A stretch of DNA of 64,000 nt. Source: Clostridia bacterium (lineage in GTDB: Bacteria; Bacillota; Clostridia; Christensenellales; CAG-314). The position numbers were made by a program, and so were the translations under genes. Shown in pieces: positions 1-17,482 of the stretch. The notes under the pieces were generated by a model. The model was not told where the DNA came from, ran no database searches, and saw nothing but the letters and a program-made list of their open reading frames with translations. The DNA lies in contig JAFVYC010000018.1 of assembly GCA_017500855.1 (NCBI GenBank), forward strand, positions 17,400 through 81,399. Direction: 5' to 3'. The first letter of the stretch is position 1; the number at the start of each line of letters is the position of its first letter.

Positions 1-348
1 TTCCACGTCTTGGCACTCGCCAATGCCCACAACGCAAAGGCCGTTTTCCAACTGTTCGTACTGCAATCCAAGGCTGTAGGGCGTGCCAACAACTTCCGTT
101 TTGGTGTGTTGGCAAGTTTTGCAGGTAAATGTCATTTCAAAATCGCTTGTTTTGCGCCCTTCGTCCCAATCGTGTTCGGCTTTGCCGGCAATGCCTTGGC
201 AGGATGAGCAAACTTGCCAATGGTGCGTTTGGTCACTTGTCCAGCCTGTGTCGAAGGTGTGGATGTGGATGTTTTGGCAACTTGCAAGCGCCATCACAAG
301 GCACAGCACAAGCGCACACAGCGCAAACTTGTTGTGTAGTTTTGTCAT
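1..348 (-). CDS. Putative lipoprotein, N-terminal 116 codons only (gene continues past the left edge)
   Basis: Missing from the ORF track because it is truncated. My reverse-strand translation from ATG (346-348) gives MTKLHNKFALCALVLCLVMALASCQNIHIHTFDTGWTSDQTHHW..., a signal peptide plus lipobox LASC, open down to position 1. GGGAGAAAG Shine-Dalgarno lies just upstream and TGTGGTATAAT at 407-417. Confidence 0.6.
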   Translation of the reverse strand, partial: MTKLHNKFALCALVLCLVMALASCQNIHIHTFDTGWTSDQTHHWQVCSSCQGIAGKAEHDWDEGRKTSDFEMTFTCKTCQHTKTEVVGTPYSLGLQYEQLENGLCVVGIGECQDVE

Positions 349-406
349 ACTTTCTCCCTTGGCGTTGCGCAAGGCTTTTTTGCGCAAAACCCATGTTTGT
401 GGCTGT

Positions 407-417
407 ATTATACCACA
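407..417 (-). promoter_or_regulatory. Extended -10 promoter element TGTGGTATAAT (copy 1 of 7)
   Basis: Plus strand reads attataccaca, which is TGTGGTATAAT on the minus strand. It lies about 60 nt upstream of the ATG at 348. Confidence 0.5.
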
Positions 418-631
418 AAAACACGCAGACGTGCAATGTTTTTGCCAATGTTTTTGCACTTTTGTGCAAATGCATGCCAATTGCTTTGGTGGAAACGGAA
501 AACACATGGTGCACGTTTGTTGATTTAGCATCGGATTTTGCCACAGCGCAAACCTTTTGTGCAATGCAAAATACACGTTGCAATTTTGATCAAAACACCC
601 CACACGTGTGTGGAAAAACAAGCAACAGCGC

Positions 632-667
632 AAAAAAACACCCCAAAAGTTTTGTGCTTTTGGGGTG
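632..667 (-). terminator. Intrinsic terminator of the 693-2462 lipoprotein gene
   Basis: Stem caccccaaaag (639-649) pairs with cttttggggtg (657-667). The A-run at 632-638 is a T-run on the minus strand, 26 nt after the stop. Confidence 0.75.
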
Positions 668-692
668 CAATTGCGTTGGTTTTGTGTGAACA

Positions 693-2462
693 CTAGTTGG
701 CTTCTGCCAAAATGCTTTGCGCTTCGGTTGTTTGCACGTATTGCATAAACGCCTGTGTCAGTTGGTCGTTGTTGAGTTTTGCCACACGGCGATTGGTTTG
801 GCCGTACACGTCTATTGCCACAAGGTCGCCAACAACCATGTTGATGATTTGACTGTCTGGGTTGGTTTTGATGTTGTCGGCGCAAGGCAAAACAATGTCC
901 ACGTTGCCGTCTTGCACAACCTTGGCTGTGAAGTTGGCAATGAAGTAGTAGGGGTCGGATTGCGCCTTGCCCGTGTAGTAGATGTAGGAAATTTCTTCGT
1001 ACTCAATGCCTTGGCTTTGGCAATATTGCTTGAACCCGTCCACAAGTTTTTGTGTTTTTGCTTCGGAAATGAATCTGCCCCAACTTGCCACAACAAGCAC
1101 TTTTGTTTGGTCTTTTTGTTGGTTTTGATTGTTGTTTTGGTCGTTGTTTTGGTCGCTGTTTTGGTCATCATCGTCGCCTTCCGAAGGCACGTATTCCTCG
1201 TCAAACGCCACGGCGCAAGCAACTTCTCGCAGTTGTTGCAACACCGATTGGTCTGTCAGGCTTCCACCGTAGGTTGCCTTGGTCACGTCTGCGCCCAACA
1301 GCGTTGCTGCATGCACGCATGCGCCCAAGTAGGAGCCTGCGTAGGATTGGTGGTGCTTGTCCGTTGCGTACAAATTGATGGAACTGTTTGCAAGCACAAG
1401 TTCGGTAAACGCCCTTCCCACGTAGGAAATCTTAACCCCTGTTGCTTGCGCAGCCTTTTCGTAGCCTTGGCGCACAGCCATTTCCATTTGAGGAATGTCC
1501 CAACCGTAGGATGGCGCCGACTTCATGTAGCCCCAAGTGGAGTACAGGTATATTTGGGCGTGGTCTTGTGTGGATTCTATCAGCGCTTGCATGTTTTGCA
1601 CGCCACGCAAAAACCTGTCGTAGTTGGCAAATGCGCATGTGCTTTGCTCTTGAAGCACAACAAAGTCGAAGTCACTTCGTGCGTTTAGCAGTGCATTGAC
1701 TTGCTTTCCACATTGGTCGGTGGGTTTGGCGTGGTTTTCCAAGTACCAACCCGGGCCCGTGATGGAGTAGGTGTCCACAAGGTAGCCCATTTGGTTTACA
1801 AGTTGGTGGAAAATTTCCGGCACAACGTTGGTGTAGGTAAAACTGTTGCCAACAAACAGCACACGTGTTTTTTGCCAACGCTCGGCTTCCCCATTGTCGT
1901 TGTAGTGCCAGTAGTTGCCGTCGGTGGCAAACAATTCGTCGGGGTTGTCAAAGTCGAAAACGTTGCTGTTGGTGTTTTTGTCCGACTGCCAATGGCGACT
2001 TACAGTTTGCACGGGCTCTTCTCGGTAGGTGTACACTTTTGCCAAATCTTCCTCGGCAAATTCAATGCCATCGGTTTGGGCAAAGTACGGCGCTTCCACA
2101 GGGATGGCATTTTCGCCAACTGCGCCAACGGATTGTGGCAACACAAGGTGTGTGATGCTTGTGCCAACAAACGCATTGTTTCCAACGTACACAATGCCTT
2201 CGCCAAGCACAACGGATGTGATGCTACTTGCATTTTTGCACCAAGGCGCATCAGCAGGGGATGCAAAGTCTTTCATTGCGCCGTTGCCAACAACGTGCAA
2301 TGCGTAGGTGTTGCCCGTTTGCACAAGGCTAGCAGAAATTTTGCCGTTTGAACTTGCCGAAACATCCCACGAGGAGTTGCAACCTGCAAGGCACACGCAC
2401 AAAGCAAATGCAAAAATTGCAACAACGGCAATTGCCACAAGGGTACGGTATGCTTTTTTCAT
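693..2462 (-). CDS. Multidomain surface lipoprotein: BspA-type leucine-rich-repeat segment, SGNH/GDSL-like hydrolase-like domain and C-terminal alpha/beta domain
   Basis: Track ORF is 693..2612. I place the start at the internal MKKAYRTLVAIAVVAIFAFALCVCLAGC (lipobox LAGC) with GGAAGTG SD. Motifs: GNNAFVGTSITHLVLPQSV (LRR) and VLFVGNSFTY (SGNH-like block I). An Asp/Asn/Gln-rich linker (DDDDQNSDQNNDQNNNQNQQ) precedes the last domain. Confidence 0.75.
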   Translation of the reverse strand: MKKAYRTLVAIAVVAIFAFALCVCLAGCNSSWDVSASSNGKISASLVQTGNTYALHVVGNGAMKDFASPADAPWCKNASSITSVVLGEGIVYVGNNAFVGTSITHLVLPQSVGAVGENAIPVEAPYFAQTDGIEFAEEDLAKVYTYREEPVQTVSRHWQSDKNTNSNVFDFDNPDELFATDGNYWHYNDNGEAERWQKTRVLFVGNSFTYTNVVPEIFHQLVNQMGYLVDTYSITGPGWYLENHAKPTDQCGKQVNALLNARSDFDFVVLQEQSTCAFANYDRFLRGVQNMQALIESTQDHAQIYLYSTWGYMKSAPSYGWDIPQMEMAVRQGYEKAAQATGVKISYVGRAFTELVLANSSINLYATDKHHQSYAGSYLGACVHAATLLGADVTKATYGGSLTDQSVLQQLREVACAVAFDEEYVPSEGDDDDQNSDQNNDQNNNQNQQKDQTKVLVVASWGRFISEAKTQKLVDGFKQYCQSQGIEYEEISYIYYTGKAQSDPYYFIANFTAKVVQDGNVDIVLPCADNIKTNPDSQIINMVVGDLVAIDVYGQTNRRVAKLNNDQLTQAFMQYVQTTEAQSILAEAN

Positions 2463-2663
2463 TTTGTTCACTTCCTTTTGCGCAACATCCAACTGCCGTT
2501 TGTGTTTTTGCCCACAACAGTTCCGTTGCACATTGTTTGTGCCAACAGTATAGCACAAAACAAAATTTGTTTCAATACGTTTTGCAAATTTTTTGTTCGC
2601 ATTTTGCGCCAAATTTGCCGTTTTAACGGGGTGTGGTGCGTTGCCGTGGCAAATGCCGTCAGC

Positions 2664-2963
2664 CTACTTTTTGAGCAAGGCAACCATGTGTTGCTTTTTG
2701 TCTGTAGGCAGGGCTTCTATCAAGTTTTTCAGTTGATTGTCAATTTGGTAGTCCACAATATTGGAACTGAAAAATCTTTCAATGGGAAATTGGCAAATTT
2801 CCAAAATTTGCAACAACTTTTCCACCGTCAGCACAATGCGACCACTTTCCACTTGCGCAACGTACTGTGGGCTCATGCCCATTCGCAAACTAACTTCCCT
2901 AGCCGACAAATTTGCTTGGTTTCTTACGTAGCCAATTCTAGCCAAAATTTCTTTTATTTCCAT
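2664..2963 (-). CDS. XRE-family helix-turn-helix transcriptional regulator
   Basis: MEIKEILARIGYVRNQANLSAREVSLRMGMSPQYVAQVESGR is a classic Cro/C1 HTH. Start taken at the second Met (GGAG SD 6 nt upstream). Divergent from the SLOG gene. Confidence 0.85.
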   Translation of the reverse strand: MEIKEILARIGYVRNQANLSAREVSLRMGMSPQYVAQVESGRIVLTVEKLLQILEICQFPIERFFSSNIVDYQIDNQLKNLIEALPTDKKQHMVALLKK

Positions 2964-3081
2964 AAACAACTCCAAAAACATTTGATACCACTATTATATA
3001 GCATAGGCAAAAACCAACGGAAAACGCACGCACATAAAATTTGCCCAAAACAGCCAAAATGAATACTCACAAACATAAAGG

Positions 3082-3092
3082 TGTGGTATAAT
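3082..3092 (+). promoter_or_regulatory. Extended -10 promoter element TGTGGTATAAT (copy 2 of 7)
   Basis: Exact 11-mer about 20 nt upstream of the SLOG ORF. Bracketed by the inverted repeat gaatactc (3061-3068) / gagtattc (3102-3109). Confidence 0.5.
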
Positions 3093-3113
3093 GAATAGTG
3101 AGAGTATTCAAAA

Positions 3114-3674
3114 TTGGAAAATTGGAGGTTTTTTGTTGTGGAAAAACATAAAAGTTGTTGTTTTGTTGGGCACAGGTCGGTGCCACACACGCCACAATTG
3201 AAAAGTAAATTGCAAGAACTTGTGCAATACCTTGTTGCAAGTTGCAACGTGCAAACGTTTTTGTTTGGTAGCAAAAGCACCTTCAACGACCTTTGCTACC
3301 AAGTGGTGACGGAAGCAAAGAAGGCGCATCCACACATTCAAAGAGTGGCGTACACTTGCAAAAGCGAAAGTTGCACCTTGCAAAGCAACTTGGAGCAAAG
3401 CCAAGCCATCTACAAGCGTTTCGACACAAGCGTTGCTTTTCCGTTTGTTGTTGAGCAGGAAGTGGAGCATCCGTCCAAACACGTTGCAGGCAAGGCGTGC
3501 TACGTACAACGCAACATGGCAATGGTGGATGCAAGCGACTTTTGCGTTTTCTACTTTTGCAAGGGCTACGTTGTGGCGCAAGGCAAGGAAAACTCTGCAA
3601 AAAGTGGGACGGCAATTGCGCACGCCTATGCCATCAAGCGTGGAAAAGTTGTGTTCAACGTTGCGCAAAACTAG
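3114..3674 (+). CDS. SLOG-family protein (DUF1273 / YpsA-like)
   Basis: SCCFVGHRS near the N-terminus, then TFLFGSKSTFNDLCYQVVTEAKKAHPHIQ and YVQRNMAMVDASD ... SGTAIAHAYA, matching my memory of the CCFTGHR-type DUF1273 pattern. Start uncertain: TTG 3114 or GTG 3138 after GGAGG. Confidence 0.65.
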   Translation: MENWRFFVVEKHKSCCFVGHRSVPHTPQLKSKLQELVQYLVASCNVQTFLFGSKSTFNDLCYQVVTEAKKAHPHIQRVAYTCKSESCTLQSNLEQSQAIYKRFDTSVAFPFVVEQEVEHPSKHVAGKACYVQRNMAMVDASDFCVFYFCKGYVVAQGKENSAKSGTAIAHAYAIKRGKVVFNVAQN

Positions 3675-3731
3675 GTTTGGCACAATAGTTTGGCAAAATG
3701 GCGCAAATTGTATTGAAAAATTGTGGGTAGT

Positions 3732-3742
3732 TGTGGTATAAT
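3732..3742 (+). promoter_or_regulatory. Extended -10 promoter element TGTGGTATAAT (copy 3 of 7), promoter of the methyltransferase-ligase-HD-Pnk operon
   Basis: Exact 11-mer inside the 5' end of track ORF 3723..4472, which forces the true start downstream (GTG 3771 after AAGGAG). Confidence 0.5.
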
Positions 3743-3770
3743 GTACAAAAACATCAACAAGGAGAAAGTT

Positions 3771-4472
3771 GTGGAAGACAGGTACTACTTGCATTTTGGC
3801 GCAGCGTGTGTGCGTGGCCAAATGGCTAGACAAAACAAACTGCATTTGCTTGGCAACGGGTTGGACGTTGGCGACGTTTTTGCGTTGTCTGCCCAGCAAT
3901 GCCAACAAATTTTGCAAATTGGCAAGCAAAACGGTGTTGATTTGCACCTTTTCAAGAAAACAAGTAGCACTTTGCCACGCATTTCCAAGGTTATGGGCTT
4001 TTTGAAGGGTGTTGGGCTGGAAACACTTGTGGACGTTGGCACGGGGCGTGGCGCATTTTTGTTGCCGTTTTTGCAACAGTTCCCTTGGGTGCAAGTGACC
4101 TCGGTGGAAATTTCCCCAAGCCGTGTGCAATTGTTGCAAGATTTGAGCCGTGGTGGCGTGGGCAACCTTTCCGTGGTAAGCAAGGACATTTGCCAAAATC
4201 CGTTGCCACCAAACAGCGCCGACGTGGTAACTTTATTGGAAGTGTTGGAGCACATTCCCAACGTTGCCGATGCAATTTTGTCGGCGTGTAGCATTGCCAA
4301 GAAGTACGTTGTTGTGTCCGTGCCCAGCAAGGAAGACAACAATCCCGAACACATTCACTTGCTGACAAAGCCGTTGCTAACGCAGTACTTTGGGCAGGCA
4401 GGGGTAACAAATTTGCAGTTCGATGGCGTCAACGGCCACCTTGTGATGATTGCAAAGAAGGAGCAAAAGTAG
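3771..4472 (+). CDS. Class I SAM-dependent methyltransferase (first gene of the putative RNA repair operon)
   Basis: SAM motif I LVDVGTGRGAF; VTLLEVLEHIPNV and PEHIHLL downstream. AAGGAG SD 6 nt before GTG 3771. The stop TAG abuts the ligase ATG. Confidence 0.8.
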   Translation: MEDRYYLHFGAACVRGQMARQNKLHLLGNGLDVGDVFALSAQQCQQILQIGKQNGVDLHLFKKTSSTLPRISKVMGFLKGVGLETLVDVGTGRGAFLLPFLQQFPWVQVTSVEISPSRVQLLQDLSRGGVGNLSVVSKDICQNPLPPNSADVVTLLEVLEHIPNVADAILSACSIAKKYVVVSVPSKEDNNPEHIHLLTKPLLTQYFGQAGVTNLQFDGVNGHLVMIAKKEQK

Positions 4473-5255
4473 ATGGATTTCAACATAAAAAAGTTTCCCC
4501 GAACGCCACACTTGGAAGGCAGTAGGTTGCAACCGGGCGACGAGGATTTGAGTCAAATTCCCTTTTCGGAAATTTTGGGCAAAAACATTGTGGTGGAAGA
4601 AAAAATTGACGGCGCCAACAGCGCAATTTCCTTTACGGATGGCAAGCAGTTGCTCATTCAAAGCCGTGGCCACTACCTTGTTGGTGGCTACAGGGAAAGG
4701 CACTACAACTTGCTCAAACAATGGGCAAACGTGCATCGGGAAGAATTGTTTTCCGCATTGGGCTGTCGCTACGTGATGTTTGGCGAGTGGATGTACGCCA
4801 AGCACACAATTTTCTACGACGAACTTCCACACTACTTTGTGGAATTCGACATCTACGACAGGCAACGTGGTGTGTTTTTGGACACGGACAGCCGAAAAAC
4901 CATCACGCAAAAGTTGCCAATAGTGCATTCCGTGCCGGTGTTGGCAAGAGGTGTGTTTTCCAACAAAAAGCAAATTTTGTCCCTTTTGGGGCAATCCAAG
5001 TATATCTCAAACAACCACTTGCAAGTGCTTGCGCAAACTGCCAAAAGGCTAAATTTGGACGTAGACTTGCAATTGGCTCAAACCGACCCGTCCACCACAA
5101 TGGAAGGGTTGTACATCAAGGTGGAGCAGGACGGAATTGTGGAAAGCCGTGTAAAGTTTGTTCGAGCATCCTTTTTGCAATGCGTGGCGCAATCGCAGTC
5201 GCATTGGCAATCTCGCCCAATTGTTCCCAACAAGGTAAAAGATGAACTACAGTAG
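4473..5255 (+). CDS. ATP-dependent RNA ligase family protein (covalent nucleotidyltransferase superfamily)
   Basis: Motif I EEKIDGAN (catalytic Lys), FGEWMYAKH (motif III-like), EFDIYD, EGLYIKV (motif IV-like), VKFVR (motif V-like). N-terminal FPRTPHLEGS. GAAGGAG SD. Confidence 0.8.
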   Translation: MDFNIKKFPRTPHLEGSRLQPGDEDLSQIPFSEILGKNIVVEEKIDGANSAISFTDGKQLLIQSRGHYLVGGYRERHYNLLKQWANVHREELFSALGCRYVMFGEWMYAKHTIFYDELPHYFVEFDIYDRQRGVFLDTDSRKTITQKLPIVHSVPVLARGVFSNKKQILSLLGQSKYISNNHLQVLAQTAKRLNLDVDLQLAQTDPSTTMEGLYIKVEQDGIVESRVKFVRASFLQCVAQSQSHWQSRPIVPNKVKDELQ

Positions 5256-6414
5256 GCAATTTGCGCAAATTTTGCAAGCAATGCCACAACCGGGTGGCGC
5301 AATAGATTGGCAGTTGTTGCAAAGCACCTGTTTGCAAGGCGTTTTTCAACAAATGGCAAACACTCCACAAAACCCCACGCACCACGCCGAGGGGGATGTT
5401 TTTGCGCACACTCAACTTGTGGCGCAAAGCCTTGTGGAACTTGAGGAATTTGCTTGTTGCACCAAGCACGAGCAGGAACTTTTGTTTGTTTCGGCGCTTC
5501 TTCACGACATTGGCAAAATTGCCACAACCACCCTTCAAGACGGGCAGTTGGTTTCGCCAAGGCACGCACGTGTTGGCACGGAAATGGCAAGGGAATTTTT
5601 GTGGAAGCAAGCGGAAATGTGTGGGGACGTGGTGCGACAAAACGCCAGAGAAACCATTTGTTTGCTTGTGAAGTACCACTCTTTTCCACCCTTTGCCGTG
5701 TTTGAAAAATCCAACAAAAAGTTGTTGAAAATTGCTGGCAACGGAAACCTTGCCCCAAGTTTTTGCTTGCGACTTTTGTACGTTTTGGAAAAAGCCGATG
5801 CTTTGGGCAGAAAGTGCCAAGAGCCAAACGACTACATGGAGCGCATCGAGTGCTTCAAAATGCTTGCCGAGGACGAAGGGTGCTACAACGGTCCGCACAA
5901 GTTCTCTACGCCGTTTTCTCAACACGCATTTTTCCAAGACAAAACAAGTTGGAAGGAGGACGTGCTTTTCGACGACACGTGGGGCGAAATTGTGGTGATG
6001 TGTGGCCTTCCCGCAAGTGGCAAGGACACCTACTTGCAAAGCCATTTTGCCCACTTGCCAACCGTCAGTCTGGATGCAATTCGCAAGGCGAACAAAATTT
6101 CGCCAACCAAACCGCAAGGGGAAGTTGTTGCCATTGCCAAGGAGCAAGCCAAGGAATTATTGCGTGCAAAACGCCCCTTCGTGTGGAACGCAACCAACAT
6201 CACCAAGGACACACGTGGCAAAATTGTTTCCCTTGCCGAAAACTACGGTGCACGTGTGCGACTTTTGTTTTTGGAAACGGATTGGCAAACGGGGCTTCAA
6301 CGCAACAGCAACAGGCAGGACGTTGTTCCACAAAACGTGGTGGAAAAAATGCTTGCCAAACTGGAAGTTCCGGAAATTGACGAAGCGCAAACCGTTGAGT
6401 GGATTGTGACGTAA
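5242..6414 (+). CDS. HD-domain phosphoesterase fused to a P-loop polynucleotide kinase (HD-Pnk-type end-healing enzyme)
   Basis: N-terminal HD signature (HHAEGDVFAHT ... LLHDIGK). C-terminal Walker A GLPASGKDT followed by a kinase-like fold. The ATG overlaps the ligase 3' end by 14 nt. Confidence 0.8.
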   Translation: MNYSRQFAQILQAMPQPGGAIDWQLLQSTCLQGVFQQMANTPQNPTHHAEGDVFAHTQLVAQSLVELEEFACCTKHEQELLFVSALLHDIGKIATTTLQDGQLVSPRHARVGTEMAREFLWKQAEMCGDVVRQNARETICLLVKYHSFPPFAVFEKSNKKLLKIAGNGNLAPSFCLRLLYVLEKADALGRKCQEPNDYMERIECFKMLAEDEGCYNGPHKFSTPFSQHAFFQDKTSWKEDVLFDDTWGEIVVMCGLPASGKDTYLQSHFAHLPTVSLDAIRKANKISPTKPQGEVVAIAKEQAKELLRAKRPFVWNATNITKDTRGKIVSLAENYGARVRLLFLETDWQTGLQRNSNRQDVVPQNVVEKMLAKLEVPEIDEAQTVEWIVT

Positions 6415-6530
6415 AACAAGCACACGGGTTGCCGTTTTGCGTGAACGTGCAACTGTTTGAACAAGCAAATACTTTTGTTGCCATTCGTGCGTTTTGTGGC
6501 ACACGTGGTGGCAAAAACAACATTTTTTAC

Positions 6531-6580
6531 AAAAAAAAACAACAAAAGCGTTGAACAAACAAACGTTCAACGCTTTTTTT
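6531..6580. terminator. Bidirectional intrinsic terminator between HD-Pnk (+) and the MFS gene (-)
   Basis: Stem agcgttgaac (6547-6556) pairs with gttcaacgct (6565-6574). Flanked by an A-run upstream and T7 downstream. Confidence 0.8.
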
Positions 6581-6603
6581 CGTACCACGGGTGTGGAATT
6601 TTG

Positions 6604-7770
6604 CTAGTTTTGGTGTTTTGCCGAACGTACAACAACTTCGTGCAGGGCAACTACAAGTGCAAGAATAACCGCCAAGAAAACGGGTAGCAATGCAACGGAA
6701 AGGTGTTCTGCCATAACGCCAAACAACGGTGGCATCACCAAAAATCCAACGTAGGCAAACGCCATTTGCACGCCAATCATTGCTTGGGATTTTTCCTTGC
6801 CGAACACCGACGGCGTCATGTGGATGATGCACGGGTACACGGGTGCGCAACCAACGCCCACAACAACCATTCCAACAAGCGCAAAGGCAACGTGTGTTGG
6901 CACAAACATCAGCGCCGTTCCAACGGCAATTACCACCAAGCCCGTGCGAATCAGTACTTTGTCGCTAAGTTTCATTGCCAAAAATCCGTTTACAAACCTG
7001 CCCGCAGTCAGCCCAATGTAGAACATGCTTGCGTAGCTTGCGGCGTCCTCGGCGGAAAAACTCCATTGTTGCACCAAGTAGGTGCTTGCCCACAGCGAAG
7101 CAGTAACTTCCAACGCACAGTAGAAAAAGAACAGCAAAAAGCAAGCAACTGCGCCCCTTGTTTCAACAATTTGCTTGAAGGAAAGCGCCTTGTGTTGCGG
7201 AGCATCCACGCCACCGTCTGCGTGCTGTTTTTTCCACAGCGGAACGGAGCAAAACACGCCAATGCACAGCACCGTTTGGGCAATTGCCACAATCAGGTAG
7301 CCCCAGTTCCAACTTTGCAGTTTCACAAGCGCAAAACTCATCACAAACGGACTTGCCGATGCGCCCACGCCCCACATGCAATGTAGCCAACTCATGTGTT
7401 GCGGTTTGTAGTGCAAGGCAACGTAGTTGTTCAAAATGGCATCCACGCCACCTGCGCCCAAGCCGTAGGGTATCGACCACACCACAAGCATCCAAAATTT
7501 GTTGCTTGCGGAAAATCCAAACAACGCCAACGCCGTCAGCGCAACGCTCACAGCAGTAACTTTTCCTGCGCCAAACTTGGCTAGCAACCTGTCGCTAATC
7601 AAGCTGGAAAACACCGTTCCCACGCAAATTATTGACGAAAGAAGCCCTGCAAACCAAACGGGCACACCCATTTGTTGCTGAACAACCGGCCAAGCCGAAC
7701 CCAACAGCGAGTCGGGCAGGCCCAAACTTACAAAGCACACATATATCAGTGCCAAAAGCAAACTTCCCAT
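6604..7770 (-). CDS. MFS transporter
   Basis: 12-TM-like hydrophobic profile; MGSLLLALIYVCFVSLGLPDSLLGSAWPVV. Start moved to ATG 7770 (AAGGTGG SD) because the track start GTG 7797 sits 2 nt after the -10 element. Confidence 0.85.
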   Translation of the reverse strand: MGSLLLALIYVCFVSLGLPDSLLGSAWPVVQQQMGVPVWFAGLLSSIICVGTVFSSLISDRLLAKFGAGKVTAVSVALTALALFGFSASNKFWMLVVWSIPYGLGAGGVDAILNNYVALHYKPQHMSWLHCMWGVGASASPFVMSFALVKLQSWNWGYLIVAIAQTVLCIGVFCSVPLWKKQHADGGVDAPQHKALSFKQIVETRGAVACFLLFFFYCALEVTASLWASTYLVQQWSFSAEDAASYASMFYIGLTAGRFVNGFLAMKLSDKVLIRTGLVVIAVGTALMFVPTHVAFALVGMVVVGVGCAPVYPCIIHMTPSVFGKEKSQAMIGVQMAFAYVGFLVMPPLFGVMAEHLSVALLPVFLAVILALVVALHEVVVRSAKHQN

Positions 7771-7799
7771 TTTTGCCACCTTTTGTTTTGTTGCCACAC

Positions 7800-7810
7800 A
7801 TTATACCACA
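7800..7810 (-). promoter_or_regulatory. Extended -10 promoter element TGTGGTATAAT (copy 4 of 7)
   Basis: Plus strand reads attataccaca. It lies about 30 nt upstream of the MFS ATG. Confidence 0.5.
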
Positions 7811-7846
7811 CCCCAACAAACATTTCAACCAAATGAGGCGGAAAAA

Positions 7847-8260
7847 CAAAGCCCCTTGCAAAAACAAGGGGGCGTGTGTGTGTTTTGTGGTGCAATTGAC
7901 TGCAAACGCTTCAATTTGCTTTGGATTTTTTGGCAGTAGGCTTGCTTCGGTTGATGTGCTTCAATGCTGTGGCGCAGTTTGAAAAGCAGTGCCAGGCGGA
8001 GCAACCAAAGTGCAAACAAAAAGCAAGGGCGCATTCTAGTCTTTTTTCAACAAGGCGGAAAAACAAAACCCCTTGCAAAAACAAGGGGGACGTGTGTGGT
8101 TTTTGTGGTGCAATTGACTGCAAACGCTTCAATTTGCTTTGGATTTTTTGGCAGTAGGCTTGCTTTGGTTGGCGTGCTTCAATGCCATGGCACGTTTTGA
8201 AAAGCAGTGCCAGGCGGAGCAACCAAAGTGCAAACAAAAAGCAAGGGCGCATTCTAGTCT
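7847..8260. repeat. Tandem duplication, 2 x 207 bp, roughly 90-95% identical by eye
   Basis: Copy A is 7847-8053 and copy B is 8054-8260. Each contains the last 6 codons of mazG (LLKKD*), about 170 nt of 3' region and the hairpin ccccttg-N5-caagggg with a T-tract on the minus strand. Confidence 0.9.
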
Positions 8261-8583
8261 TTTTTCAACAAGAACGTTTCAAGGTTGATTGTGTGGTTGT
8301 ACTTGATGGATGCCACTTTGTCTTTTTCAATTATCAGCGTGGAAAGGTCAATATCGTTTATTGCAGCAATGGCAACAATGTAGTGTATCATGTCGGCAAG
8401 TTCAATGCCCAGTTGTTGTTGAAGGTCGTTTTCGTTGGAGGCTTTGCGACCTGCCCGCTTGTTCAGCACTTCGGCAACTTCGCCAATTTCTTCCACCAAC
8501 TTCATGAACATGCTTTGTTCGGTGGTCCTTCCACGGTAGTGGTTTGCCAAATATTCCTGAAGTTCATCAATAGATATTTTCAC
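8254..8583 (-). CDS. MazG-like nucleoside triphosphate pyrophosphohydrolase (small, single domain)
   Basis: LVEEIGEVAEVL ... ELADMIHYIVAIA is the typical MazG EEXXE/helix pattern. GTG start with AAAGGAG SD. Confidence 0.8.
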   Translation of the reverse strand: MKISIDELQEYLANHYRGRTTEQSMFMKLVEEIGEVAEVLNKRAGRKASNENDLQQQLGIELADMIHYIVAIAAINDIDLSTLIIEKDKVASIKYNHTINLETFLLKKD

Positions 8584-8635
8584 GTTGCGTTCTCCTTTGT
8601 GGGTTTGTTGTCATGGGCTGCCGTTCGATGTTTAG

Positions 8636-8854
8636 TTACCTATGTTGAATTTGGTGGTGTTCGGGTGGAGCAATTGTGATTGTTTCCCTGTGTTTGGCGC
8701 CACATCGCAAACAAGTGTATTCCACAACGTAACCACCAACGCCCCCTTCAATTTCTACGCCCAAATCCCAAGTGTGACTGCATTTTTCTTCGCACGATGC
8801 AAAAACAAGCGTGCACAAAACAATGCACAGCACAATTGCAAGCAGGTTTTTCAT
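8636..8854 (-). CDS. Small lipoprotein (72 aa) with a CxxC/His-rich motif
   Basis: MKNLLAIVLCIVLCTLVFASC (lipobox FASC) then EEKCSHTWD ... CLRCGAKH. The ATG overlaps the stop of the upstream four-helix-bundle gene (ATGA). Confidence 0.6.
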   Translation of the reverse strand: MKNLLAIVLCIVLCTLVFASCEEKCSHTWDLGVEIEGGVGGYVVEYTCLRCGAKHRETITIAPPEHHQIQHR

Positions 8855-9198
8855 TGCTTGCTCTCTTTCAATGTTTTGCAACTGGAAATAAGCATGCGCC
8901 TTATTCTGCCACAAAGATTTCTAATACTCTTGTATGTTACTTCTGAAATGGCATTTGTGTTGAACAGCAATTGCAACCAGCCTTCCGTTTCACTACATTC
9001 TTTGAGAGCAATTTCAAATTTGGACAACATGTCGGCTTTGCTTTGACCGTAGTTTGCTTCTCGGATGTTAGCATATACACTGCTTGAACTTTTGCGAATT
9101 TGAAACATTGTGTTAGACGGAGCTTTTATGCTTTGACACAACAATTCAACACCAGTTGCAAGTTGCTCGGAGTAAGTGAGTAAATAGTTTTTTGGCAC
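8851..9198 (-). CDS. Four-helix-bundle protein (23S rRNA intervening-sequence protein / Avd-like family)
   Basis: SVYANIREANYGQSKADMLSKFEIALKECSETEGWLQLL matches the family signature as I remember it. GTG start after AGAGGTG. Confidence 0.75.
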   Translation of the reverse strand: MPKNYLLTYSEQLATGVELLCQSIKAPSNTMFQIRKSSSSVYANIREANYGQSKADMLSKFEIALKECSETEGWLQLLFNTNAISEVTYKSIRNLCGRIRRMLISSCKTLKESKQ

Positions 9199-9217
9199 AG
9201 TATCACCTCTTTAGAGC

Positions 9218-9228
9218 ATTATACCACA
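9218..9228 (-). promoter_or_regulatory. Extended -10 promoter element TGTGGTATAAT (copy 5 of 7)
   Basis: Plus strand reads attataccaca. It lies about 20 nt upstream of the four-helix-bundle GTG. Confidence 0.5.
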
Positions 9229-9243
9229 TACAAGCAACAAAAT

Positions 9244-9440
9244 CAAGGCGACAGCCTTGTATATCATCAAATTCGTAGAATTTGTATATCATCAAAACGA
9301 AGTTTTGTATATCATCAAGTCGCAGAAAGATACACGCTGATGCGTGATGATATACAGCCCAAAGGGCTGATGATATACGAATGTATATCTCGCCACAGGC
9401 GAGTTATACATTCAATGATATACCAAGTCTGCGACTTGGA
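9244..9440. repeat. Array of short variable hairpins, each followed by the conserved 11-mer GTATATCATCA: three forward units then three inverted units
   Basis: Forward copies at 9259-9269, 9284-9294 and 9307-9317. Inverted copies (TGATGATATAC) at 9345-9355 and 9368-9378, plus a partial at 9416-9423. Adjacent hairpins include caaggc-gaca-gccttg, aattc-gta-gaatt, aaaac-gaa-gtttt, agccc-aaa-gggct and ccaagtc-tgc-gacttgg. Confidence 0.85.
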
Positions 9441-9441
9441 T

Positions 9442-9483
9442 AAAAAAATACTGCAAAAATGTGACCATTTCTGCAGTATTTTT
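9442..9483 (-). terminator. Intrinsic terminator of tRNA-Arg
   Basis: Stem atactgca (9448-9455) pairs with tgcagtat (9472-9479). A T7 run follows on the minus strand, immediately after the tRNA CCA end. Confidence 0.8.
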
Positions 9484-9560
9484 TGGCGCAACGTAAGGGA
9501 TTCGAACCCCTGACCTTTGGTTCCGTAGACCAACGCTCTATCCAGCTGAGCTAACGATGC
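9484..9560 (-). tRNA. tRNA-Arg (anticodon ACG)
   Basis: Reverse complement is GCATCGTTAGCTCAGCTGGATAGAGCGTTGGTCTACGGAACCAAAGGTCAGGGGTTCGAATCCCTTACGTTGCGCCA. It folds as a cloverleaf with anticodon loop CU-ACG-GA, T-loop GGTTCGAATCC and an encoded CCA. One U-U mismatch in the acceptor stem (4:69). Confidence 0.9.
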
Positions 9561-9577
9561 ATCTCTAGTGCCTATGT

Positions 9578-9606
9578 ATTATACAGCAGTTGCACCAAAA
9601 AGTCAA
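9578..9606 (-). promoter_or_regulatory. Consensus sigma-A-type promoter of tRNA-Arg
   Basis: Minus strand reads TTGACT-N17-TATAAT. The -10 ends 17 nt before the mature tRNA 5' end. Confidence 0.7.
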
Positions 9607-9676
9607 CAAATCTTTCAAAGGTTTTCAACAAAAATTGTAATTTTGTGCTGTGGCAAGCAAGACAAGTTGCCTTTTG

Positions 9677-9687
9677 TGTGGTATAAT
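9677..9687 (+). promoter_or_regulatory. Extended -10 promoter element TGTGGTATAAT (copy 6 of 7)
   Basis: Exact 11-mer 35 nt upstream of the HAD hydrolase ATG. Confidence 0.5.
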
Positions 9688-9722
9688 GTAGAAAATATCT
9701 ACAAAACACAGGAAAAATTCAC

Positions 9723-10352
9723 ATGAACGGCTACGATTTCGACGACACCATCTACAAGGGCAACAGTTTCAGGCGCTTTTTTCTTTTTTGCCTTGTGCGC
9801 TTGCCCTACTTGATAGTTTTGCTTCCCGTGCAAATTGTGTGCGCTTTGCTTCGTGCTTGCCACGCCATCAATCACCAACAATTTCTTTCGGCAATGAACT
9901 GGTTTGTGTACCTTGTGCCAAAAAGAAAGTGGTTTGTTGGCAAGTTTTGGGACAAAGAAATTGCACGCATAAAACCTTGGTACTTGGCGCAACAACGCTC
10001 GGATGATATTGTTGTTTCGGCATCCCCACGCTACGAAGTGCAGGAAATTTGCAACCGACTTGGCATTGCAACGCTCATTGCCACGGAAACGGACAACCCC
10101 AGCCACCCTCACAATGGCGTGTACTGCTACGAAATGCAAAAAGTGGTGCGCTACAAACAGCAGTTTGGCGACACTCCGTTGGAAACCTACTACTCCGACT
10201 CAGTCACCGACATCCCAATGTTTATGCTGGCAAAACGTGGCTACTACGTGGACGGCAACAACGTTGTGCTGTACTACGAAAACGGCAAGCAAGTTTGCCA
10301 AATCAACGAAAAAAAGGCGCAAAAAGTCAAAAAGCGCAACGGGCTGAACTAG
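9723..10352 (+). CDS. HAD-superfamily hydrolase (HAD-IB-like) with an N-terminal hydrophobic segment
   Basis: Motif I YDFDDTIY (DxDxT), motif II VVSASP, motif IV YSDSVTDIPM. Confidence 0.8.
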   Translation: MNGYDFDDTIYKGNSFRRFFLFCLVRLPYLIVLLPVQIVCALLRACHAINHQQFLSAMNWFVYLVPKRKWFVGKFWDKEIARIKPWYLAQQRSDDIVVSASPRYEVQEICNRLGIATLIATETDNPSHPHNGVYCYEMQKVVRYKQQFGDTPLETYYSDSVTDIPMFMLAKRGYYVDGNNVVLYYENGKQVCQINEKKAQKVKKRNGLN

Positions 10353-10394
10353 CCACCCCGTGTGGCGAAATTTGCCACCAACATACAAAAAGCA

Positions 10395-10438
10395 AAGAGA
10401 GAACAAATTGGTGCAAACCAAATGGTTCTCTCTTTTTT
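10395..10438 (+). terminator. Intrinsic terminator after the HAD gene
   Basis: Stem aagagagaac (10395-10404) pairs with gttctctctt (10425-10434), then a T-run. Confidence 0.7.
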
Positions 10439-10670
10439 ATTGGTCAAAGCGCAAAACACGCACCCCGTGGTGCAAAATTTGTGGAAAGTCGTTGCAAAAA
10501 CCGTTAAATTTGAATTTGTTTGCAAAGCCCGTGCAAAGTTGCAAGCAAAGGCTTTGTGTTGCAAAAGTCCACACCCGTGGTGCAAAAACGGCTTTTTGGC
10601 AAATTCTTTTGTGCTTTGTGAAGGAGAAAAAATATGTTTTGTTGCAACACGTGGTTGCATTTTGCGCTTT

Positions 10671-12236
10671 CTAGGTGTTTTGACGTTTGCTTTTTTTCTT
10701 CTTTTGCAAGGTAGTTGCGGGAACGTTGGCAAGCAAAACAAGAAATGGTGCAACAGCGCAACCCACAACAACCAATATCACGGGCAAAATGCTTCCGCAC
10801 GCAAGCAAAGACAAAATGCTTGTTGCAAGCGCAAACAGCAACGAGTCGGCTGTGTACTTCAACGCTTCGCAAAAGGTAAATTTTTTGCTTTGCTTGGGCG
10901 TTACCAAAAACACGGCTTTTTTGCCAAGTAATCCCAAAAGCACAGTGCGTATCATCATTGGCGCAAGCGATGCGTAGGTGCAAACCGTCACAACGAAGTA
11001 GGGCAACAACAAAGCAAACTTTTTGCTCTTTCGGTACACAAACAAATCCGGTATCAGCGGGGATGCCAAAAACAGCAACATCAACAAGTACACGCCCAGC
11101 GAGTAGGCAATTGTTGGGTAGCCCAAAAATCCCAGCGCAATGGTGCAAGCCGTTAGCAAAAGCCCAAGCATTGGCACGATGGGCAGGCTGTAGTGACTGA
11201 TGCGAACGTCTAGTTTTTCAAACCACGTCATGGGACATTTGGAAATGTCTTTGTTGTACCTTGCCATGTACTCCAAGTTGCCTTGCGTCCACTTGCATTG
11301 CCGTTTTTTCAACGCAACGTAGTTGTTGGGGAATTGTTCTTGGCACAAAACGTCCGGTGCGTACAGCACGTTCATCCCTGCGTTTTTCACTTCCACAGCA
11401 AAGGAAATGTCCTCGGCAACAACGTGGGGAAACCCACCTGTTTTTTGGTAGCAAGCACGGCTGACGGTCATCCCGTGGCCAAGAAGCGCATTTGCGCCGT
11501 AGAAATTCTTTACAACTTGCACGGTTTTGCCGTTGCTTCCCACCGAAAGCCCCAACAGTTGTTGAAACAAGTTTTCCCCTTCCGTTGCCGTGTGCCTTGC
11601 TTGCACGGCGCCACAAAGTTTGTCGAATGCAAAGTACTTTTGCACTTTTTGGATGTAGTTTGGTGGAACAATTTCGTCGGCATCCAACACCACAAAGTAG
11701 TCGTAGTCGGTGCGCCCCTCAAGGTAGTTGTTCAAGTTGCCCGCCTTGTAGCCTTGCCGTCCAACTCGCCGAACAAGTTCAAACTGGGCATGCGTGTCAA
11801 CAAAATCGTCAATTTGTTTGACGTAGCGTTGGTCGGTGCTGTCGTCCAAAATCACCGTTTTGTAGTTGTTGTAGTGCTGGTGGCTACTTTGCAACAGCGC
11901 TGTGGGGTTGAAATCGTTGCAAGTGCAGTACAACAGCACGAAACGTGGGGACGTGGTGGGCAATTGCGCTTGTTCTTCCACTTGTTGGTAGGCTTTTTGC
12001 ATGCTTTTGCTTGCCAGTTTGTAGGCGCAGGAAAACACAAAGTCCTTGATGCTTCCAAGCCACAACATCGCAAGTGCAAATGTGTTTGTTGCAAGCAAAC
12101 AAACCACGGCAACGCCTTTTGCGCCAAGGGGGTGCGGAATTTTTGCTACCGTCCACGCCAAGCTTGCCACCAAAACAGCAACACACACAGCCCACAAGCA
12201 CAGCACAACAACGTACACAGTCGGTTTCTTTTTCAC
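10671..12236 (-). CDS. Membrane-integrated family 2 glycosyltransferase (processive beta-glycan-synthase-like)
   Basis: VLLYCTCNDF, ILDDSTD, LDADEIVPPNY (DxD) and QCKWTQGN (QxxRW-like), with N- and C-terminal TM bundles. Start set at GTG 12236 after AAAGGAGG; the track start at 12278 lacks an SD. Confidence 0.8.
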   Translation of the reverse strand: MKKKPTVYVVVLCLWAVCVAVLVASLAWTVAKIPHPLGAKGVAVVCLLATNTFALAMLWLGSIKDFVFSCAYKLASKSMQKAYQQVEEQAQLPTTSPRFVLLYCTCNDFNPTALLQSSHQHYNNYKTVILDDSTDQRYVKQIDDFVDTHAQFELVRRVGRQGYKAGNLNNYLEGRTDYDYFVVLDADEIVPPNYIQKVQKYFAFDKLCGAVQARHTATEGENLFQQLLGLSVGSNGKTVQVVKNFYGANALLGHGMTVSRACYQKTGGFPHVVAEDISFAVEVKNAGMNVLYAPDVLCQEQFPNNYVALKKRQCKWTQGNLEYMARYNKDISKCPMTWFEKLDVRISHYSLPIVPMLGLLLTACTIALGFLGYPTIAYSLGVYLLMLLFLASPLIPDLFVYRKSKKFALLLPYFVVTVCTYASLAPMMIRTVLLGLLGKKAVFLVTPKQSKKFTFCEALKYTADSLLFALATSILSLLACGSILPVILVVVGCAVAPFLVLLANVPATTLQKKKKSKRQNT

Positions 12237-17250: not shown

Positions 17251-17482
17251 CGTGCCCAGCGCATGCAAGTGGAATTTTCAAGTGTAAACTGAGAGTGTGC
17301 AAGTTGTGGCTAAAACTTGCCGTTGCGTTTGACTTGTTGCTTCTTGAATGGCGTGCTTGGCACATGCAAGTGGAATTTTCAAGTGTAAATTGAACGGACT
17401 TGCGTTGTGGAAACACGCCTGCCGTTGTGTTTGACTTGTTGCTTCTTGAATGGCGTGCTTGGTGCATGCAAGTGGGCAATAA
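17251..17482. repeat. Tandem repeat, about 101-bp unit, 2.3 copies
   Basis: Units at 17251-17350, 17351-17452 and a partial at 17453-17482. Each starts cgtgc(c/t)..gcatgcaagtgg and ends gtttgacttgttgcttcttgaatgg. It lies in the divergent intergenic region between the SPFH operon and the acyltransferase gene. Confidence 0.85.

Follow-up and report, generated by a model that had tools for sequence, protein, structure and literature searches.

A conserved methyltransferase, RNA ligase and HD-Pnk operon of gut Clostridia as a candidate RNA repair system

Introduction

Two described bacterial systems come closest to the operon reported here. The Pnkp/Hen1 system of Clostridium thermocellum and Anabaena encodes together a kinase, a 2',3'-phosphatase, an ATP-dependent ligase and an S-adenosylmethionine (SAM)-dependent methyltransferase. 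In Runella slithyformis, a gene pair for a ligase (LIG) and the end-healing enzyme HD-Pnk belongs to a cluster that also carries Tpt1 and a fusion of a methyltransferase to a HIT domain (MTase-HIT) (PMC6097658). Here, we describe a three-gene operon encoding a methyltransferase (MT), a LIG and an HD-Pnk on contig JAFVYC010000018.1 of a Clostridia bacterium (GCA_017500855.1), within a stretch of 64,000 nucleotides (positions 17,400 to 81,399) that we call the window and whose numbering is used throughout unless another locus is named. We report that this triad is a conserved unit, that its gene content very probably reflects a role in RNA repair, and that its MT carries counterparts of catalytic residues of Hen1, the enzyme which methylates RNA in the Pnkp/Hen1 system.

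Results

The triad is a conserved unit

The three open reading frames (ORFs) lie on the + strand. MT (3771..4472) runs from a GTG start to a TAG stop and encodes a class I SAM-dependent methyltransferase of 233 amino acids. LIG (4473..5255), a 260-residue stand-alone ATP-dependent nucleotidyltransferase of the RNA ligase type, begins with an ATG at the base right after the MT stop, leaving no gap, and terminates with a TAG after overlapping by 14 nucleotides (5242-5255) the gene of HD-Pnk (5242..6414; ATG start, TAA stop), a 390-residue fusion of an HD phosphoesterase and a P-loop kinase. An earlier reading of the bare sequence, hereafter the original prediction, had described three packed ORFs with exactly these coordinates and junctions, and all the motifs that it listed are present in the translations: VDVGTGRG, EVLEH and PEHIH in MT; KIDGAN, FGEW, EGLYIKV and VKFVR in LIG; HHAEGD, LLHDIGK and GLPASGKDT in HD-Pnk. 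The MT start at GTG 3771 is backed by the N termini of homologues and by a ribosome-binding site read from the sequence (AAGGAG, 3759..3764, + strand) located 6 nucleotides 5' of it. Public annotation places this start at ATG 3741 (243 residues), a position inside the predicted -10 box described below, and labels the three products "class I SAM-dependent methyltransferase", "RNA ligase family protein" and "AAA family ATPase".

The co-occurrence of MT with LIG and HD-Pnk in other genomes had been named beforehand as a test of the original prediction, and we observe it across most loci and in distant relatives, alongside fusions of the MT family to a ligase. A scan with MT of GTDB release 232, in which each species was represented by a single genome, placed relatives on 328 stretches, mostly from Oscillospiraceae, Lachnospiraceae and Acutalibacteraceae. 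The best 80 loci were inspected, and nearly all of them come from gut or rumen Clostridia, with one from a member of the Coriobacteriaceae. The triad was counted by tblastn with the LIG and HD-Pnk of the window in the 70 informative loci, those having at least 2.1 kb of sequence downstream of MT: both partners are present on the MT strand in 68 of them, the gene order MT-LIG-HD-Pnk is kept in 66, and the gap between MT and LIG is under 300 nucleotides in 59. The flanks of the triad differ from genome to genome and are otherwise unrelated. Two distant members of the MT family (P0348 and P0339), taken from the search of family representatives, are likewise found in overlapping MT-LIG-HD-Pnk triads. 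Finally, in two proteins the MT family forms a single polypeptide with a ligase: P0371 (L082:6001-7686, 561 residues) and P0374 carry it C-terminal to an Rnl2-type ligase (PF09414 + T4_Rnl2_C), and both retain the N-terminal helical segment of MT as well as all of its catalytic motifs. The triad is a real conserved unit.

The metagenomic contig that encodes the ligase-MT fusion is high in GC and has neither a kinase nor a phosphatase gene close by. An apparent MT-kinase fusion (P0416), in which the NPEH motif is missing along with the ligase and HD domains, was not used, being likely a deletion or an assembly chimera. A HIT domain was absent from all 10 long representatives of the MT family that were scanned.

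The association is asymmetric. Many loci with LIG and HD-Pnk have no MT, while MT almost never occurs without the pair, so that MT can be seen as an accessory whose link to an RNA ligase is essentially constant. The family, whose members are about 230 residues long, comprises 2,200 clusters at E ≤ 1e-5 in the 90% database, versus 5,729 for LIG, and 181 representatives at E ≤ 1e-30 in the 50% library. HD-Pnk is also found on 59 plasmids, including homologues on Deinococcus megaplasmids. For MT, a tblastn search of plasmids gave no match and a scan of IMG/VR viral contigs with the MT profile gave no relative, so that the family is not evidently borne by phages or plasmids.

MT carries counterparts of Hen1 catalytic residues

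The assignment of MT to the class I methyltransferases, already made in the original prediction, is agreed on by Pfam, by its SAM motif and by its fold matches. Five Pfam families score above their cutoffs (Methyltransf_23/11/25/12/31), with E values of 3e-12 to 3e-10 for Methyltransf_23/11/25. The AlphaFold model (predicted local distance difference test, pLDDT, 90.8) shows alternating β-strands and α-helices with a D-x-G-x-G SAM motif, and a Foldseek search of the PDB returned 983 matches at E ≤ 1e-3, the listed top 50 of which are all methyltransferases. The protein consists of a small N-terminal helical domain (about residues 1-65) followed by the catalytic domain, in which a Hen1-type E-x-x-E-H ... 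E-H motif is formed by E157, E160, H161 and E193-H194. Residues E157, E160 and H161 come right after the model strand 150-156, which corresponds to β4. In HEN1 enzymes, the corresponding tetrad of residues is placed in two short, HEN1-specific elements that follow β4 and β5, and the metal which it holds contacts both hydroxyls, 2' and 3', of the last ribose (PMC10781085).

We aligned 26 Hen1 methyltransferase domains, including the 3JWI and 3JWJ chains, and compared them with the MT family using hhalign, which matched the two with a probability of 97.4-97.9% (E ~1e-11). The alignment pairs R70 with Arg273 of C. thermocellum Hen1 (CthHen1), D88 with Asp291, E157 with Glu366, E160 with Glu369 and H161 with His370, the CthHen1 residue numbers being those that we take to apply once the +258 offset of the 3JWI construct is added. 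The fourth ligand was reached only under relaxed settings, where E193-H194 falls onto the D-H dyad of His418 in a low-confidence segment after a deletion of 12 residues. As an independent check, conservation across 150 family representatives is 95% for E157, 96% for E160, 96% for H161 and 93% for H194, compared with 67% for the neighboring H196; of the two histidines, it is thus H194 that stands out, in agreement with the Hen1 alignment. In a PDB profile search, the alignment to the C. thermocellum Hen1 methyltransferase domain (3JWI/3JWG) was the longest. Against the bacterial Hen1 family model (TIGR04074, bacter_Hen1), MT reaches 21.2 bits for a cutoff of 340 and covers model positions 264-399 only, and profile searches gave no match to the N-terminal Pnkp-binding domain of Hen1.

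The healing and sealing enzymes

Both halves of HD-Pnk are matched by profile, in line with the fusion of HD phosphoesterase and P-loop kinase that had been proposed. The HD phosphoesterase spans about residues 44-190 (nucleotides 5371-5811) and matches Pfam HD over residues 53-150 (3e-8); the kinase spans about residues 250-378 (nucleotides 5989-6375) and matches AAA_33 over residues 251-377 (5e-25). The possibility that the latter might be a small-molecule kinase had been named as one that would speak against the original prediction. Instead, the domain resembles polynucleotide and tRNA kinases: it matches the bacterial Pnkp kinase model TIGR04075 with an E value of 2.5e-10 and, in the PDB, the solved C. 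thermocellum Pnkp kinase domain (4gp6/4jst) and PSTK. Residues conserved in 60 homologues include the His/Asp motifs of the HD domain, the P-loop GLPxxGK(D)(T), Asp277, Arg307, Asn319 and Arg353-Asn354. The P-loop of the window protein (GLPASGKDT, nucleotides 6004-6030, residues 255-263) has an Asp, and not a Ser or Thr, after the lysine. This is a family trait, since more than 90% of the 60 Clostridia homologues share it, as does a Cytophagales HD-Pnk (GSGKDT). The HD-Pnk of Chondrinema, a member of the Cytophagales, is 37% identical to that of the window over residues 21-389, in effect the full length (E 3e-85), and its gene adjoins an RNA ligase gene.

The sole Pfam domain of LIG is RNA_ligase (PF09414; E 9e-35, 120.7 bits for a cutoff of 27), which bears out its identification as a nucleotidyltransferase-type ligase, together with the invariance of its motifs in 27 homologues. 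The invariant residues are K44, D46, G47 and N49 of motif I (KIDGAN), G104-E105-W106 of motif III (FGEW), E211-G212 of motif IV (EGLYIKV) and K228 of motif V (VKFVR). The AlphaFold model (pLDDT 85.7) gives top fold matches exclusively to RNA ligases, namely Naegleria NgrRnl, Trypanosoma brucei REL1, archaeal Rnl3 and T4 Rnl2; these matches span the nucleotidyltransferase core only, with a template-modeling score of ~0.46 and an E value of ~1e-6. A sequence search of the PDB gave no match, and the accessory domains which define Rnl1, Rnl2, Rnl3 or Rnl5 were not found by Pfam, PDB or fold searches. Because its fold matches are all RNA ligases and the accessory domains of Rnl1 to Rnl5 are missing, LIG is best described as a bare adenylyltransferase core of the RNA ligase type. 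It is only 21% identical to the ligase of the Chondrinema LIG/HD-Pnk pair and is, by this measure, a divergent subclade relative to the Cytophagales LIG.

Related loci extend into NAD/ADP-ribose islands

An island of same-strand genes surrounds or adjoins the triad in about a quarter of genomes, represented by about 28 related loci, for instance in L008, L010, L016, L017, L022, L023, L029, L040, L042, L046 and L047. A census of 150 same-strand neighbor ORFs from the 28 loci counted 20 NADAR, 14 Macro, 14 ADP-ribosylglycohydrolase and 13 calcineurin-like phosphoesterase (metallophosphoesterase) genes, followed by NMNAT-like (7), HD_4 (5), RtcB (4), T4 gp30.3-like (4), LigT/2H (2) and Tpt1 (1). 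Fusions of NADAR to Macro and of NMNAT to NADAR are found in these islands, and in some cases a NADAR fusion separates MT from LIG. Roles for Tpt1, 2H, Macro and NADAR proteins in RNA repair dependent on nicotinamide adenine dinucleotide (NAD) have been described (PMC7824862). The predicted functions of the island genes independently connect the triad both with RNA repair and with end chemistry that depends on NAD, and the whole looks like an RNA repair supercluster linked to NAD and ADP-ribose. None of these accessory genes is present anywhere in the 64-kb window. In addition, a distant triad (L086) is adjoined by a dual-specificity/PTP-type phosphatase (L086:8477-8959) and by a large ADP-ribosylglycohydrolase (9058-10972), possibly further end-processing accessories.

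Expression signals and genomic neighborhood

The operon appears to have its own promoter, as had been claimed: a sigma-70-type site on the + strand (3713..3742) combines a -35 box TTGAAA (3713-3718), an 18-nucleotide spacer and an extended -10 box TGgTATAAT (3734-3742), matching 11 of 12 consensus positions plus the TG, and ranks first among the sites within 2500-7000. Promoter-like sites as a class are not in excess in this interval, with 4 observed and 3.6 expected in shuffled sequence. At the other end, a hairpin of 14 pairs flanked by A and T runs (6544..6577, assigned to neither strand) is placed between HD-Pnk and a convergent MFS transporter gene; this candidate bidirectional terminator can, from its structure, terminate the operon transcript.

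The 64-kb window is ordinary chromosome, with genes of the size of MetRS, LeuRS and SecA. The original prediction had placed the operon next to a SLOG/DUF1273 gene and an XRE regulator, and had read this as the context of a conflict module. We found no SLOG profile match for the upstream ORF (3114-3674): its sole Pfam match is Nuc_deoxyrib_tr, below cutoff (E 0.004, 17.7 bits for a cutoff of 28.8), NCBIfam and PADLOC gave none, a PDB sequence search returned chance-level matches only, and no Pfam match is on record for it in sister contigs. The only contigs in which this SLOG-like ORF and the XRE gene (2664-2981) were seen again are near-identical sisters, and homologues of the two were found beside the triad in none of 81 other loci, which leaves the conflict-module context unsupported. 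Both were rejected as members of the module on account of this lack of conservation and of the separate promoter of the triad. The near-identical strains (L089-L092, compared with window positions 1-2660) differ from the window just upstream of the XRE gene, where some of these contigs have a further small ORF or a pair of them (141-147 and 170 residues), an instance of strain-level variability beside the operon. PADLOC matched the cassette through generic domains only (mad2 for the MT core, Cas3/Cas10 for the HD domain), so it is not a catalogued defense system.

Downstream, a tandem pair of 213-nucleotide units that are 90% identical (7842-8054 and 8060-8272) separates the MFS transporter gene from a MazG-like gene, and the sole tRNA gene of the window, tRNA-Arg(ACG) (9484-9560, - strand), lies ~3 kb from the operon. 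The first 12 kb of the window (1-12000) contain 112 ORFs of at least 50 residues, many of them very long and antisense or in alternative frames, such as a spurious ORF of 362 residues (3108-4196, - strand) which runs antisense to the SLOG-like and MT genes. These long spurious ORFs arise from a strong codon bias with few off-frame stops, and mislead gene calling by longest ORF.

Discussion

The original prediction read the operon as a cassette that heals, seals and modifies broken RNA, and the co-occurrence of the three genes, the ligase fusions and the catalytic residues all speak for it. From the gene order, translational coupling, domains, conservation, fusion and catalytic residues described above, we infer what each enzyme does, that RNA is its substrate and in which sequence the steps follow. 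On these grounds, a role in RNA repair is very probable, while the more specific scheme, in which the three enzymes heal, mark and seal RNA cut by transesterifying ribonucleases (ribotoxins, toxin-antitoxin RNases or anticodon nucleases), has in our judgment an even chance of being right. In this scheme, the HD domain would remove a 2',3'-cyclic, 3'- or 2'-phosphate and the P-loop domain of HD-Pnk would phosphorylate the 5'-OH, as expected from the characterized Runella homologue family. MT would then use a divalent metal, bound to E157, E160, H161 and H194, to hold the terminal ribose with its healed 2'-OH/3'-OH end, and would pass the methyl group of SAM to the 2'-OH, as the equivalence of its motif to those of HEN1 and Hen1 suggests. 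Lastly, LIG, adenylylated on K44, would join the 3'-OH to the 5'-phosphate, leaving a 2'-O-methyl at the junction that may block re-cleavage. For the 2'-O-methylation step itself, we regard the chances as close to balanced, if perhaps a shade short of it.

More tentatively, and with a probability somewhat below even, we propose that the 233-residue MT is a minimal stand-alone Hen1-type 3'-terminal RNA 2'-O-methyltransferase which, with HD-Pnk and a new ligase clade free of accessory domains, may form a second, independently assembled system for repair and immunization that is widespread among the Clostridia of the gut. Its core would, in a quarter of genomes, plug into an NAD/ADP-ribose island, which would imply the repair of ends carrying 2'-phosphates or ADP-ribose adducts. 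We know of no dedicated bacterial repair operon that has been characterized for such RNA ends.

Several observations weigh against the methylation and sealing steps. The top-50 list of PDB fold matches is made up of generic small-molecule O-methyltransferases, with no Hen1 in it; on the predicted model, the fold search is non-discriminating and decides neither for nor against Hen1. The top NCBIfam match is MftM, a sugar O-methyltransferase, at 57 bits versus 21 for bacter_Hen1, both far under cutoff, and the PDB profile search puts 3mgg and YcgJ above Hen1 (third and fourth). The pairing of H194 with Hen1 His418 is of low confidence, as it needs a 12-residue deletion in the profile alignment, and Arg414 of Hen1 has no counterpart in MT according to hhalign. 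Concerning the ligase, the Runella LIG homologue adenylylates itself and seals none of the standard 3'-OH/5'-PO4 substrates tested (PMC6097658). There is also no cognate ribonuclease linked to the operon. Given that the N-terminal Pnkp-binding domain is missing, that the helical N-domain is a different one, that Arg414 lacks a counterpart and that the TIGR04074 score is far below cutoff, MT is not a Hen1 orthologue; since Hen1 is not its top match, the term Hen1-like rests on the catalytic motif and on context, not on orthology. Whether MT clusters with small-molecule or protein methyltransferases, named at the time as a finding that would count against the original prediction, has an ambiguous answer: near-invariant residues align with the Hen1 metal ligands and Arg273, yet the scores of MftM, 3mgg and generic O-methyltransferases equal or exceed that of Hen1. 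As for the inactivity of the Runella LIG on standard substrates, it could be that the family acts only with a partner or on an end that bears a modification such as 2'-O-methyl or 2'-phosphate, which offers a concrete hypothesis for a so-far-inactive LIG family partnered with HD-Pnk.

The strongest alternative keeps the operon in RNA repair or processing and gives MT a task other than 2'-O-methylation of the 3' terminus. Its target might be a nucleobase close to the break, a phosphate at the terminus or a ribose inside the chain; or MT might mainly assist the ligase in a non-catalytic or regulatory way, much as the N-terminal domain of Hen1 does for Pnkp. Linkage and fusion bind MT to ligation and not to one chemistry, MT resembles Hen1 no more closely than it does other class I methyltransferases, and the conserved N-terminal helical domain is retained even in the ligase fusion. 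However, the family keeps the predicted Hen1-type metal tetrad and the counterpart of Arg273 almost without exception, in a pattern specific to recognition of the ribose 2',3'-diol in HEN1 enzymes, and the intact SAM-binding motifs indicate that MT is probably catalytic. We hold this alternative to be somewhat unlikely.

The islands suggest another possibility, in which the operon forms part of an RNA pathway linked to NAD and ADP-ribose that mends 2'-phosphate or ADP-ribose ends, as might be left by ADP-ribosylating toxins or Tpt1-type chemistry, with methylation serving that pathway and not immunity to ribotoxins. The gene counts from the 28 loci, the occasional NADAR fusions between MT and LIG and the presence of Tpt1 in the Runella cluster (PMC6097658) are what one would expect from it, but most loci, including this window, have the bare triad, which indicates that the accessory genes are optional, and we consider it unlikely as an account of the operon as a whole. 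A slimmer chance still is that the cassette mends DNA ends, that is, breaks with 3'-phosphate and 5'-OH termini. The Runella HD-Pnk is called a DNA/RNA end-healing enzyme, going by a title cited in PMC6097658, and HD-Pnk homologues are carried by Deinococcus megaplasmids; against this, every one of the best fold matches of LIG is an RNA ligase, a Hen1-type methyltransferase requires a ribose 2'-OH, and RtcB, 2H and Tpt1 occur in the neighborhoods. That MT is an unrelated small-molecule or protein methyltransferase merely co-transcribed with LIG and HD-Pnk, as natural-product O-methyltransferases among the top fold matches and "UbiG-like" names among homologue annotations might suggest, is already disfavored and very unlikely in view of synteny in 68 of 70 loci across many Clostridia families with wholly different flanks, of the RNA ligase fusion, and of an MT that is almost never without a LIG/HD-Pnk pair which itself exists without MT.

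If MT indeed 2'-O-methylates the junction, repair with immunization would have arisen on two or more occasions out of parts that are not orthologous, here with an HD phosphatase in place of a calcineurin-type one, a free-standing ligase and a minimal methyltransferase. The gut microbiota of animals commonly contain this system, its extended islands link RNA break repair to ADP-ribose and NAD metabolism, and its small, separable enzymes are on offer for RNA end chemistry.

Among described systems, the HD-Pnk/LIG cluster of R. slithyformis shares with our operon the domain order of HD-Pnk and an upstream ligase ORF which overlaps the HD-Pnk start (PMC6097658). The two differ in the methyltransferase, which is stand-alone and translationally coupled directly 5' of LIG here, whereas the Runella MTase-HIT resides with Tpt1 in a separate two-gene cassette. 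Since that cassette lies beside LIG/HD-Pnk, it is a partial precedent (PMC6097658), and the three-part architecture, which had been taken as uncharacterized, is less unprecedented than it seemed. Our literature search found the stand-alone, coupled, minimal Hen1-like MT, the ligase fusions and the Clostridia-wide spread to be undescribed; Burroughs & Aravind 2016 (NAR 44:8525), which lay outside the coverage of this search, may list the neighborhood. The eukaryotic HEN1/HENMT1 enzymes have in common with MT the class I fold and, for the metal at the terminal 2',3'-diol, the E-x-x-E-H after β4 and probably the D/E-H after β5. The likeness is limited to this catalytic core, as MT has no double-stranded RNA-binding or La-type domains and its role and partners differ. 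T4 Pnkp with Rnl1/Rnl2, as well as RtcB/RtcA, similarly heal the ends of ribotoxin-cleaved RNA and seal them, and the fold of LIG is nearest to adenylyltransferase domains of the Rnl2/Rnl5/Rnl3 type, but these systems involve no methylation step and LIG lacks their accessory domains.

The resemblance to Pnkp/Hen1 goes further. Beyond the joint encoding of the four activities, MT has counterparts of Hen1 Glu366, Glu369, His370, Arg273 and Asp291 and a probable one of His418, and the kinase domain is related to that of Pnkp. The parts are nonetheless built differently: the phosphatase is an HD domain here and a calcineurin-type module there; the ligase is a separate 260-residue protein and not the C-terminal domain of Pnkp; and the 233-residue MT has no Pnkp-binding N-domain, a different helical N-domain in its place, and a loop before the fourth ligand that is 12 residues shorter. 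On its predicted activities, the cassette is thus a functional parallel of Pnkp/Hen1 assembled from non-orthologous parts, around an HD-Pnk/LIG core that belongs to the family defined in Runella.

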